Assembly: GCA_002503985.1 (NCBI GenBank)
Contig: DASW01000007.1
Coordinates: 108,435-172,434 of the forward strand
DNA: 64,000 nt
DNA from: Thermoplasmata archaeon UBA61
GTDB lineage: Archaea > Thermoplasmatota > Thermoplasmata > Lutacidiplasmatales > UBA184
Direction: 5' to 3'
Made by a program: the position numbers and the translations under genes. Positions 49,409-59,288 of this stretch are shown piece after piece. Every line of letters starts with the position of its first letter. Positions within the stretch are counted from its first letter, which is position 1. The notes beneath the pieces are model-generated. The model made no database searches and had not been told where the DNA came from. It was given only the letters and a program-made list of their open reading frames with translations.

Positions 49409-49627
49409 TCACGCGGTCTGGCTCTCTCCTGACTCGTGGTCTGAGTCTTCCGGACCAGAAGCAGGAACACCCTGGCGGAACTGGGTCTCGGTGATGCCAA
49501 AGCTCGCGTAGAATCGCGCCGCCTTCACCCAGTCCCGCCGGAGGACCTCCTCCGCTCCGGGCGTGCCCGAAATCGCCGCCCGGGCCGCCTTGACGCGCCC
49601 GCGCAGGTCGCGCAGCCTCCCCTTCAC
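49409..49627 (-). CDS. conserved small protein, paralog of the C-terminal domain of 58383..59288 (start unresolved)
   Basis: Motif RLRDLRGRVKAARA...ARFYA.FGITE.Q is shared with 58383..59288. Homology continues upstream to ~49790, but an in-frame stop at 49792-49794 and the absence of an in-frame ATG leave the real start unclear. Confidence 0.4.
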   Translation of the reverse strand: MKGRLRDLRGRVKAARAAISGTPGAEEVLRRDWVKAARFYASFGITETQFRQGVPASGPEDSDHESGESQTA

Positions 49628-49785
49628 GGCACGTTCGTCGGCTTCGCGAGAGTCGTCGGGGAGGCCGCTCGTGGTCTCCGAGACGCTGAACTGCCGGGCC
49701 GAAGTCGCAATCTCCTCCGCGTCCTCGTCTTCGTCCGGGCCGCCGAACGCGACCCGCGACTCGAACCGCGTTCGCGTCCGGGTCG

Positions 49786-49860
49786 CGCCGCATCACGCCC
49801 GTCGCTCGCGAGCGTCTCGGCCCGCGCGGGGGGGACCCGCGAGCGAAGCGAGGGGGGAGG
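49786..49860. repeat. ~80-nt intergenic repeat, partial copy
   Basis: cgcccgtcgctcgcgagcgtctcggcccgcgcggggggg matches the 5' half of the repeat consensus. Confidence 0.4.
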
Positions 49861-58000: not shown

Positions 58001-58386
58001 GAATTGATCATGCCGAATGAGGACGGAGAAGAAGGAAGCGCTATCAGCCGAACGCTCGACGTAGGGTGCGTCGAGCCGAGTTGAGAAGGCGTGGGGAAGA
58101 GGGATGCACTGACGTTGTAGATGTATTCGAGGGGCCCATAACTGGCCGGCGATGATGCCGCCGGCCGGAGTCCGGAGGATTGGACAAGGGCGGCGGGGTT
58201 CGGCAGCGACGATTGGACGAGCATTAGCCCGACACAGAAGATTGCGACGACGACGGGGACTGAGAGAAGCCGAGAACGCCGGCGCCACGGACGCAAGTCT
58301 CCCATCGGGGATACTGGGGCCACCTGAGGAGGGCCTTCCCGGTCCGCGAACGTTTGACCGTTCTGGGTGTGTCGAGACGACTTCAT
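52069..58386 (-). CDS. giant (~2100 aa) surface glycoprotein with C-terminal polytopic membrane region
   Basis: Start taken at MKSSRH (58386, ATGA overlap with the upstream stop); the ORF track's ATG at 58434 would overlap by 52 nt. Signal-like N-terminus. Hundreds of N-x-S/T sequons. Last ~600 aa contain at least 8 hydrophobic helices. Confidence 0.7.
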   Translation of the reverse strand: MKSSRHTQNGQTFADREGPPQVAPVSPMGDLRPWRRRSRLLSVPVVVAIFCVGLMLVQSSLPNPAALVQSSGLRPAASSPASYGPLEYIYNVSASLFPTPSQLGSTHPTSSVRLIALPSSPSSFGMINSSRSGNAGALWFETGSYSASIAVQIQKRTCSTNCSTVPLLWNSPTRVASFSAPISSDALVAVGNTLVVAASGGGTTYLYQSANLGQTWRSLGTSISGVVNSVAATPSEVSVATLGITSVSVTSRTLTGSSVGQVTLTPSGSGATGILQTGSTTVPYGSTYLQATIFSVLGSDQIQLATSTNGGASYTAPTAVATFGVLTPDPRLSSIGATRLAPAASTPGQVALTSIGSGLFLAYTTQTASGQAQVMTEASSNGGQSWNGPYASGPVYGAVQNLSLSVSPAGLVYATWIDPYYGSGGIDEAIYFPDGMPLSEPSALAGTGIPTNTPSGAPAIAVDGFQRPMLAWPSPNPATSNAISFTGDFPSVNESLSLINLAVTDPLAPANFNPSTSTTQSNFNTSVASAIATASSYTAQASNLCNLQNWTALRLYANVTHVALSVLKSGTVCASSLKPNNQTSPIAPTVGPFAPNTYLAVYADWLLESEGVPVGVTPLANQSATVQTVSSLPSSASNQLSYSGQLESVTVTPSLYGPTSFQLGTSASIPSKFSGLANANYRVICNGAWNEVYYKWWTNLTSTSVSVSINGGTAHVFSGTTSYPSPVWVTNLTPYQTYTWTAKFTASYSEYMWAYAGPCVVDWGPVSPVTDGPSTESLSVPSSGSGSVTTTLSITNGGAVVQASFGSGSKTATISYSWGTTMPATGSGTLYNQTTGKYATVSPGTSYQLSQNLPVNPAGTSGNIYSASITATSRAGTGVPTGSSPVIAYDPGMTAPAQTATSSCGFTLSPPGFVIWGNSTSNDTATSALFSWYANTSGTGFVTLSESTWGGITESVSSIPGKLVSGGTRLYSVELDDLEPWTTYSVTYGISYGSGCVVDSVHANAPDSIVTPPVFPVWEQDLPYDSVGHVGGGAEIQWSLPSWFVGETPSLSSGCLGFKDIRNGSQFVVPIASSSEIIRPVGSATNFGFNVTLPTLNDTYSVSVYLNYTALSRAVNATGSATFVYERDSSGDGLTDVEKEAGWTIPLPYTQVPGGRPVNTCPPSSCIAPSEAVVTANPAKFSTNGLVSDFVEKELGLDPNTLDTAESQMLDTWNLTFAVSWSLLNSGWDVYNLWNESTTYRPFSSNVLYAPGLHEKGYPLATNIANLTPNPKNGIYSGDGSPWAAEVLWSGQAFQMLWGVWTQLESEISGVDFLRAVEGQWNGTPTLTVWGKLSWGANPLAVSTSNDGAPDGAQVNPLGGTDLQVTLTGWKDTANAAGNGVSAFVAANSSATYYSAARTDYGGYSVQVSAGSGGTANFPSSTSPKSFVVTFPVTNTEQFAYLNLSLVQNESTSNSPNTVYAIASTPHYKVDLANGQLQSVSYPSAGATPSISFTYQVLPVYSKAPTWILAPPNNSTLSPLPTGLSRYTAEQDFDLLVLNDTAPPGTNASKIAISGVFGPQSNWKYTVTLLPGLNNLLIPRAMFLASPLGQTLINATASAKVPSQHQDSSLTFNPYNWLPRVLNTSTNRPSSAGFIHVFSNTTQIYSGIDPSAFGGVASNPSLENGYQSRQVQAVFWINVSSAGYNSNLTTSAAELNDLLGGLLLNQSGNLTGNLINETAGLPALGLSSNVVTTLANATYRNDGAYGTPVSTSQPPPPSKPWWDVAASYVWNAVSGVVTVVAKLFSVGWNGIAAAAAYLADAAAALASKLGITALVSQTVTALRAIGTAMWTVLQALLNYIISFVKAILATAFAPLQAAISAYGSSVSVGLSGAVSDTVAGKAVSEAHAASFWNALLGPLFLTGIAIAVVAEVVIGILMGLSLGAGLLVGIVVGLIVSAVLQAIESSTSPNTSGLSKVTFINAVAIHATEGVANSTSPPAKNDGNWTTNWNALAGVADWTATLLSTQIGLGLLAAAYFQGDGLILPSVAFGLALVSIALGIAGASGNRLVQETSLGVSGTSVTLDLIDFAIYPADRSGPLLVLNALTAGLDFTSLGIGLGEFHEGS

Positions 58387-59288
58387 AAAGTTCTCACTAC
58401 TCGCGGCCAGCACCGGTCCAGGTCTCGGGGCCATTGTCGTTCTCCGAGCCGTCTCGGTACCCGGTTAGCCCAAGGCGTCCCAATGGGGGCGACCGGTCTC
58501 GGTCTTATGAATCCAGCGTTGGAGCGACTCACGCGGTCGGCTTCGGATGAGATTCGGACCTGCTCTCCGAAGTCGGCGTCACGTTCCCTTGACTCGATGG
58601 GTATCGTAGGGACCCCGATCCGGACCTGCCTCTCGGTGATTCCCCAACGAGCGTAGAACCGGGCCGCCCGCGTCCAGTCGCTCAGAAGGATGTAAGCGAG
58701 CCCAGGAGTTCGTGACACGACCGCCCGGGCCGCCTTGACGCGCCCACGCAGGTCGCGCAGCCTCCGCTCCGCGGCCCGCTCGTCCTCCTCCCGGGAATCG
58801 TCGGGGAGGCCGCTCATGATCTCCCACACGCTGAACTTCCGCGTCGAGGCCGCAATGAATTCATCCTCCGCGTCCTCGTCTTCGTCCGGGCCGCCGAAGG
58901 CGACCCGCGACTCGAACCGCGTCCGCGAGTAGTCGCCAAACCGGGGGCGCGGATACGAGCGAGGGGCAGGGCCACGAGGGTGAGGCAGCTGCGGGCTCGC
59001 GTCGGGCCCGTTGATCGCGGCCAGGTCGGGGAACGGGTTCGCGGTCTCGGGGCTATCGCTCTCGGTCGCGCTGGCGGCGCTGATTGCGGTCATCGGCGCG
59101 AAGCGAGCGCGCAGGGCTCGCGGCGAGCGGTGCGAGCGAGACGCGAGCACGCAGGTCGACCGAGGGCCGATTCGAGGCCCGAGGGCGACCGAGCCCCCAT
59201 CATGGTCGCCGAGCGAAGCGAGGGAACGGCGGCCGAAGGCCGCCGCGACCTTGATGTGGGGCGCGCGCGACCGATGACTTGACCGCAA
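58383..59288 (-). CDS. conserved hypothetical protein (paralog of 49409..49790), first gene of the giant-protein operon
   Basis: C-terminal ~115 aa are about 60% identical to the 49409 region. N-terminal 180 aa are low complexity, so the real start may be internal. Confidence 0.45.
   Translation of the reverse strand: MRSSHRSRAPHIKVAAAFGRRSLASLGDHDGGSVALGPRIGPRSTCVLASRSHRSPRALRARFAPMTAISAASATESDSPETANPFPDLAAINGPDASPQLPHPRGPAPRSYPRPRFGDYSRTRFESRVAFGGPDEDEDAEDEFIAASTRKFSVWEIMSGLPDDSREEDERAAERRLRDLRGRVKAARAVVSRTPGLAYILLSDWTRAARFYARWGITERQVRIGVPTIPIESRERDADFGEQVRISSEADRVSRSNAGFIRPRPVAPIGTPWANRVPRRLGERQWPRDLDRCWPRVVRTL

Follow-up and report, generated by a model that had tools for sequence, protein, structure and literature searches.

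The window analysed here, a stretch of 64,000 nucleotides (nt) from Thermoplasmata archaeon UBA61, carries at 58383..59093 an intact small gene, followed downstream by genes of surface proteins and by shortened copies of the small gene itself. A sequence-only reading of this DNA had taken the gene and one of these copies, near 49 kb, for paralogs that may serve the surface proteins beside them. We find that the small gene belongs to an integrated mobile element of peat and soil Thermoplasmata and probably marks a hotspot at which cargo genes are swapped; a private helper of each surface protein it is probably not. The GC content of the window is high, at 60-70%. Coordinates are those of the window, and features lie on its minus strand unless stated otherwise.

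The intact small gene and its truncated copies

The intact gene consists of 236 codons and a stop, as established with the family alignment (hidden Markov model, HMM, score 309; exact product P0001). It starts at the ATG at 59093. The open reading frame (ORF) had been extended to the TTG at 59288. All full-length members of the family begin with MTA(I/M)SA, which corresponds to ATG 59093; hence the 301-aa ORF is over-extended by 65 codons, and the 195 nt that were counted as coding upstream of the ATG are a conserved structured non-coding element. The conserved region, put at 115 aa before, is in the family alignment a core of 157 codons (58608-59093, profile positions 1-157) with GITExQFRxGVP at its end. 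The 74-codon tail behind the core (58386-58607) is unconserved, and tails vary in length and sequence throughout the family.

The small-gene family is a real protein. The 49-kb and 58-kb copies (49476-49776 and 58621-58927) share 78% nucleotide identity over 307 nt with one 6-nt indel, and the 64 nt at the 5' end of the match are 97% identical. In the frame proposed by the sequence-only reading the synonymous and nonsynonymous differences per site (pS and pN) are 0.39 and 0.15 and dN/dS is 0.32, against 2.3 and 2.1 in the shifted frames. The protein-level homology of the two loci is thus confirmed, the motifs quoted for it are found in both copies, and a similarity confined to DNA repeats, for which dN/dS near 1 was expected, is not what the values indicate. 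Among 83 non-redundant DNA copies the variability at conserved residues is by far the highest at third codon positions.

A search of 5.8 billion proteins returned 386 relatives, the best 120 of them all with E < 1e-48. Their named sources are almost all metagenome-assembled genomes of Thermoplasmata from peat and soil, and the few relatives bearing any protein name are called 'hypothetical'. The full HMMER scan for the family gives 478 clusters at 50% identity. As had been supposed, the family has no known domain: searches of Pfam, NCBIfam, PHROG, PADLOC and the PDB returned nothing. The sequence-only reading would have been refuted by a match to an accessory ORF of an insertion sequence (IS) or transposon, and this applies by half: no known IS family matches the gene, which nevertheless lies in an integrated mobile element.

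AlphaFold2 predicts the N-terminal ~90 residues to be disordered, with conserved short motifs within them, and the C-terminal ~60 residues to be helical with confidence (helices 99-128, 132-149 and 154-159; predicted local distance difference test 81-90). Foldseek of the model against the PDB gave nothing below E = 6. A helix-turn-helix (HTH)-like motif was an impression gained by reading; no HTH profile of Pfam or NCBIfam hit the protein and no fold of the PDB matched it. Longer family members carry an extra module of ~65 residues (…LRGMGLRWDPxxHxWHG…) between the N-terminus and the core. A DUF5710-like domain was rejected for it, as hmmscan at E <= 1 gave no such Pfam match; one family member has a YAcAr/SLOG domain at the insert site. 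Because the predicted helical C-terminus is basic and an inverted repeat stands before the upstream cargo genes, a nucleic-acid-binding regulator is a reasonable guess, and the protein could bind DNA or RNA by this C-terminus.

Profile positions 53-67 (58864-58927 and 49713-49776) form the most DNA-conserved stretch of the gene, with a median of 91% between species. Third positions are conserved there too, and the stretch has hexamer-like repeats (ACGCGG / TCGCGG / GTCGCG), which suggests a constraint beyond the protein sequence.

The family profile, run on the six-frame translation of the window, finds four copies or fragments. The two reported before are both real, and fragments at 48335-48504 and about 51427-51515 have to be added to them. 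All four are on the minus strand and each sits between consecutive minus-strand cargo genes, so that the order reads: the intact gene, a giant protein and a 189-aa membrane protein, a fragment, a 494-aa beta-propeller protein, the 49-kb copy, a 289-aa protein, a fragment and a DUF932 gene.

The 49-kb copy (49409..49777) matches profile positions 53-157 at 49463-49777 and ends with a short tail and a stop at 49409; it is without the first ~52 codons. The in-frame stop noticed upstream is present as TGA 49793-49795, six codons ahead of the homology start, and from this stop until about position 104 there is no ATG, GTG or TTG. The decay suspected for this copy is thereby borne out, as it is 5' truncated and has no start codon before the homology. 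To the truncated copy is fused a composite boundary (49778..49869), made of a CCCTCGCTTCGCTCG motif and a gene-derived core (about profile positions 126-140). Its junction sequence recurs in L012 (three times), L016, L029, L032 and L034, where L-numbers label the loci and contigs compared. The short boundary element between the 189-aa and 494-aa genes, called type S (51427..51515), is homologous to about profile positions 113-141, and the stop codon of the 189-aa gene falls within its GTGAAGG. The third fragment (48335..48504; about profile positions 113-157, E = 1.6e-9) is degraded: it is frameshifted, and a conserved Arg codon is replaced by TAG. A 48-nt motif at 47011-47058, placed between the convergent genes of an 87-aa protein and an ATPase, is 81% identical to a part of the composite boundary (49822-49869).

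The same architecture recurs among the 67 loci from Thermoplasmata genomes that were fetched for comparison. The shared orientation is nearly complete, with 166 of 168 family matches on the strand of the focal copy, and at least two copies are present in 44 of the 67 loci. Usually a full-length copy is followed by 5'-truncated copies that all reach the 3' end of the core (L012, L017, L019, L033, L046), and only a single copy is intact in the array of the window and in the arrays mapped in detail. The 5' ends of the truncated copies are widely scattered, with modest peaks near 52-53 and 113-127. Many of these copies lack a start codon and are preceded by a stop at a distance of 1-6 codons; those beginning at position 53 have a common upstream junction sequence in eight instances from seven loci. 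The nearest relatives of truncated copies are full-length genes of other genomes and not each other. Within an array the copies are strongly diverged (pS 0.4-0.6) with dN/dS about 0.2; therefore the divergence mostly accrued while they still belonged to working genes.

The ~40-nt core of the short boundary element occurs 65 times, on the strand of the gene in 65/65 cases. Six boundary elements fold no better than their dinucleotide shuffles (z = +0.35 to +1.5) and Rfam finds nothing there, hence they contain no attC-like hairpin. Both attC-like and terminator hairpins were ruled out in this way, shuffled sequence folding equally well. tRNA fragments as the intergenic repeats were rejected as well: ARAGORN found none, and it is the small gene that the repeats match.

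The structured upstream element

In 20/20 full-length loci aligned, the ~170 nt ahead of the ATG are conserved and have a sharp 5' edge. They hold a structured upstream element (UE) of about 150 nt, found in the window at 59140..59302 with a covariance-model match of 141.9 bits. From its end to the ATG there are about 47 nt in the window and 7 nt in most loci. RNAalifold yields 32 pairs in five helices, and compensatory double changes occur at 14 pairs. Paired cells amount to 96.8% compared with 36-50% in controls with slid partners, double-change cells to 70 compared with 2-9, and 0/500 shuffles reach the pairing values of the UE. The window copy folds with -88.1 kcal/mol (z = -3.7). No Rfam covariance model scores meaningfully against the UE. 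G-U pairs on its sense strand (13 cells) are about as common as mismatches (20 cells), and the structure could act as RNA or as single-stranded DNA.

The covariance model finds 159 matches, 158 of them on the strand of the gene and mostly upstream of it. The family ORF or its N-terminal fragment comes after 54 of the 65 complete UE copies, mostly with the ATG 7 nt on. The remaining matches are 3'-truncated and keep the first hairpin and CCCACATCAAG, about positions 2-60. Where loci were mapped in detail, such partial UEs stand mostly 20-80 nt before another gene, often that of a ~190-aa membrane protein, and many loci have arrays of them, one per gene, upstream of the family gene. The gene with its UE is thus flanked by mirror-image arrays, of truncated UEs on one side and of truncated genes on the other. 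The window has an upstream cassette of this kind at 59368..60001, in which a partial UE (59948-60001, UE positions 17-70) precedes the gene of a 189-aa protein with four transmembrane (TM) segments (59368-59937).

The upstream arrays are not limited to membrane proteins, since the UE arrays of L089 (1-6000) carry non-surface cargo, namely DinB-like, SnoaL-like and RidA-like genes and an acetyltransferase. An edge of the whole element 176 nt upstream of the ATG, drawn from the comparison of L088 with L090, was dropped because cargo-bearing UE arrays lie further upstream.

Two IS110-family elements (genes 60183-61277 and 61471-62559) lie inside a split UE copy of the window (59948-60001 and 62582-62624). 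Their right junction, where …GTTCATAG meets CATCGG, is the same in L026 (8573-9994), whose IS110 is 94% identical; therefore this IS110 lineage seems to target the loop of the first UE hairpin. In L036 (5093-6902) an IS110 interrupts the small gene itself, and 13 loci have IS110 homologs within 10 kb of the family gene.

Cargo, backbone and breakpoints between strains

Cassette 1 (51503..58434) comprises the giant sequon-rich membrane or secreted protein of 2121 aa (52069-58434, alternative start 58386) and the 189-aa protein with two TM segments (51503-52072). The ATGA overlap described for the junction with the small gene is found at 58383-58386 and includes a start that the giant ORF may use. 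In L065 and L072 a homolog of the giant protein comes directly after a family copy. Cassette 2 (49890..51374) encodes the 494-aa beta-propeller surface protein, NHL/YVTN-like by Pfam, with a C-terminal anchor and 18 sequons. Its homologs lie between boundary cores but with different neighbours in L002, L029 and L014, and in four genomes a boundary core is located 50-68 nt past the stop of the gene. Cassette 3 (48506..49375) encodes the 289-aa protein with an N-terminal hydrophobic segment and 10 sequons; distant homologs of it are present in other arrays.

The position directly 5' of genes for secreted or surface glycoproteins, described for two loci, holds more generally. We considered 62 downstream ORFs of the related loci, which are on the same strand and start within 600 nt past a family copy. 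An N-terminal hydrophobic segment is present in 48/62 of them against 226/742 in the background (odds ratio 7.8, Fisher p = 4e-13), and 26/62 against 96/742 are sequon-rich, with at least 1.5 N-X-S/T sequons per 100 residues (p = 9e-8). In one public gene call, P0195 (799 aa), a truncated family copy is joined to a downstream YVTN surface protein, and many entries of 74-150 aa in the HMMER family scan are stubs called as separate small proteins. Such fused or stand-alone stub calls in public databases are likely annotation artefacts.

Downstream of the cargo lie the backbone genes, named by scans against Pfam, NCBIfam and PADLOC. The DUF932 gene (47343-48218) and the gene of the 87-aa protein with two TM segments (47073-47336) are followed by three plus-strand features: a 1047-aa TraG/VirD4/HerA-like ATPase (43676-46819), a 434-aa tyrosine-recombinase-like protein (41998-43302) with weak XerC/D and Phage_int_SAM_1 matches, and an intron-containing tRNA gene (41855-41954; Rfam tRNA, 49.5 bits), which ARAGORN missed. 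The anticodon, read by eye, is putatively UUC (Glu), and an HNH endonuclease ORF (41490-41864, plus strand) abuts the tRNA gene. About 17 loci have an ATPase homolog on the strand opposite to the family gene, 4-10 kb downstream of it. The tyrosine recombinase stands beside a tRNA gene in the window, L028, L035 and L036, and the order of tRNA and recombinase with the ATPase and the family gene is seen again in L028 and L036. In L035, where the tRNA and the recombinase are present and no ATPase homolog was detected, the family gene is enclosed by an 18-nt attachment (att) repeat of the tRNA 3' end.

Breakpoints between strains point to exchange. Over 58696-64000 the window is 99.8% identical to L001, a contig of a near-identical strain that comes from a different sample. 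The identity is 100% between 59150 and 58747 and roughly 70% from 58722 onward, which places the recombination junction at 58722..58747, inside the gene and in its RDLRGRVKAARA codons. Downstream of the gene L001 carries genes of an HTH_10 protein and a KaiC-like ATPase and then a boundary element, and no glycoprotein is encoded there. Family proteins are mosaic in the same manner: in some pairs the identity is 95-100% as far as position ~119 and about 50-60% after it, and in other pairs the order is reversed, identity beginning between positions 93 and 107. L088 and L090 have the upstream element, the gene and 6.5 kb of the element downstream in common at 98.6% identity and are wholly different outward of the 5' edge of the upstream element.

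A second strain-level breakpoint region lies upstream of the ATPase gene (43513..43543), where identity of the window with L006 reaches to about 43543 and its identity with L079 sets in at about 43513. It coincides with the start of an 89-aa ORF (43259-43528) of coding-like composition and without family match, which overlaps the 3' end of the recombinase gene. Contigs of the independent assemblies L094, L095, L096 and L097 terminate inside the island or at its edges, namely in the ATPase gene, in the recombinase gene, just past the tRNA and just past the small gene; this is what population heterogeneity would produce.

Proposed cassette exchange and its alternatives

We suggest that the small gene and its ~150-nt UE serve as a single-copy hub in the variable cargo region of tRNA-adjacent Thermoplasmata elements. 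Downstream of this proposed hub the cassettes, mostly membrane or secreted and sequon-rich, would be separated by 3' pieces of the small gene, and upstream of it each cassette would be preceded by the first ~60 nt of the UE. With such pieces as separators, the 49-kb 'paralog' and the two fragments would therefore be boundaries left by recombination and not working genes.

Cassettes would be gained, lost and swapped by recombination within the repeated segments, most likely by ordinary homologous recombination, and the crossovers would fall mainly within the conserved sequence around RLRDLRGRVKAARA. From its promoter-proximal position the intact gene would share a transcript with the first downstream cassette. 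To this reading, a hub for cargo-cassette recombination inside an integrated element with the repeats as portable homology, we assign a probability of roughly 0.6. Homologous recombination is favoured because it needs no new enzyme and explains both the mosaics and the heterogeneous truncation points.

Several observations weigh against it. L001 is without the ATPase and recombinase backbone within 10 kb, and a distal att repeat of the element was not found in the window or in 10 kb beyond it. The stretches most conserved as DNA (positions 53-67 at 91% and 86-100 at 87%) are away from the clearest strain breakpoint, and the scattered truncation ends cleanly match neither one fixed site nor simple homologous recombination. 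The 40-nt boundary core has a median of 78% between species, compared with 66% in the homologous stretch of intact genes, which hints at a function of its own beyond plain homology. No recombination intermediate or deletion product was found. The recombinant predicted between the 58-kb and 49-kb copies is absent from the scanned metagenome contigs; the scan for the N-terminal module of the window type gave a single contig, which is of the window type and ends shortly past the gene.

Alternatively, the hub may be a dedicated platform for cassette capture, new to archaea and integron-like, with two defined sites for insertion and excision, a possibility we hold only tentatively. A recombinase, either the tRNA-adjacent tyrosine recombinase or another enzyme, would insert circular cassettes at sites in the RVKAARA codons and near UE position ~60. 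Cassettes would bring their own sites, formed by the conserved boundary element and by the 5' part of the UE with its first hairpin, and the small protein, the structured nucleic acid or both would participate. The strict polarity and common orientation fit such a platform, as do the single boundary per cassette at a fixed distance (for instance the 50-68 nt past the YVTN stop), the overlap of cargo stop codons with the GTGAAGG start of the boundary, a conservation of the boundary core that exceeds homologous coding sequence, the confinement of the strain breakpoint to 26 nt, and the symmetry of the flanks, 3'-truncated UEs facing 5'-truncated genes. However, the boundary elements have no attC-like hairpin, and the recombinase is 15 kb from the hub, resembles tRNA-integrating enzymes and gives no IntI-type match. 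The truncation points are heterogeneous, and the junction at position 53 looks like one ancestral microhomology fusion that spread later. Nor did the metagenome scan recover a circular junction or a recombinant.

As in integrons, a fixed platform is followed by a polar array of short co-oriented cassettes with repeated boundary elements, strains differ in the content of the array, and a promoter-proximal place in it is probably favoured; the arrays described here are indeed co-oriented, strain-variable and built of short cassettes. Unlike in integrons, a protein-coding gene and its UE supply the pieces that serve as boundaries, in place of attC hairpins, no IntI-type integrase adjoins the array, the sole tyrosine recombinase being 15 kb away, and arrays occur on both sides of the hub, with the whole structure inside a tRNA-integrated element.

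The sequence-only reading raised the idea that all copies work as small proteins, each a chaperone, regulator or targeting factor for the surface protein encoded downstream, the short copies with unusual start codons; we consider this very improbable. In its favour the copies stand directly 5' of surface-protein genes, the reading frames of truncated copies have stayed open with dN/dS about 0.2 among themselves, and gene callers place a 72-aa ORF in the 49-kb copy. The low dN/dS is, however, explained by descent of the truncated copies from full-length genes of other lineages. In many of them a conserved stop lies just ahead and a canonical start is missing, fragments of 30-40 codons fill the same position, only one copy per array is intact in the window and in the arrays mapped in detail, and in L001 the same intact gene is followed by HTH_10 and KaiC-like cargo.

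We likewise give little credence to tandem accretion of whole integrative elements that used the small gene as attB, each displacing its old 3' end and later losing its backbone so that cargo alone remained: a full copy followed by displaced 3' parts, as at tRNA integration sites, copy pairs 13-15 kb apart in several genomes and nearby tyrosine recombinases agree with it, but the recombinase is tied to the tRNA gene, in L035 the att repeat is formed by the tRNA 3' end and the element contains the family gene, the cassettes (1-7 kb) hold no remnants of recombinase or backbone, and a mirror-image array of truncated UEs is not predicted.

The proposed recombination hub has partial counterparts among other known systems. 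In tRNA-integrating archaeal elements the order of tRNA, tyrosine recombinase and TraG/VirD4/HerA-like ATPase is the same, and in L035, though not in the window or 10 kb beyond it, an 18-nt direct repeat of the tRNA 3' end bounds the element; internal arrays of cassettes delimited by gene fragments are not known from them. Polymorphic toxins (CdiA-CT/CdiI, Rhs) likewise have a full-length gene followed by 5'-truncated orphan modules on the same strand, whose retained conserved stretch can recombine with the expressed gene and bring in another downstream module. Here, in contrast, the protein has a short, unconserved tail, the variation lies in the surface-protein gene next to it and not in its own C-terminus, and scans with Pfam, PHROGs and PADLOC gave no toxin or immunity families.

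Neisseria pilE/pilS and the 'minimal mobile elements' also keep one intact expressed copy beside partial copies, with homology-dependent exchange and surface-exposed products. The repeated gene here is, however, not the surface antigen, and its partial copies flank unrelated cargo. The UE can be likened in layout to the Frpo/ssi elements in leading regions of conjugative plasmids, which are strand-specific structured elements of 150-300 nt repeated in one orientation before several genes; an archaeal host has a different promoter type, and most repeats here are the 5' ~60 nt, incapable of the full structure.

Literature searches returned no description of this architecture; a paper on ANME-1 hotspots (PMC13385816) is loosely related. 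With the reading given here, an anonymous 'hypothetical protein' family of several hundred members becomes a marker for the cargo region of mobile elements, whose hosts are abundant and uncultivated archaea of peat and soil. The cargo suggests that these archaea may shuffle genes of glycosylated surface proteins by this route. Glycosylated surface proteins are the usual targets of viruses.

The UE is a well-supported structured element new to Rfam, and one IS110 lineage seems to insert at one fixed point of it. For annotation, an over-extended ORF is corrected and many short ORF calls are flagged as gene stubs. Should the exchange be site-specific, the system would be integron-like and built from different parts, and such a capture platform would generate diversity of surface proteins in uncultivated peat Thermoplasmata.

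At 31030-34489, ahead of the pst operon, the window also has genes of a DUF87/HerA-type ATPase and of an N6/N4 DNA methylase, which may belong to another mobile or defence region.

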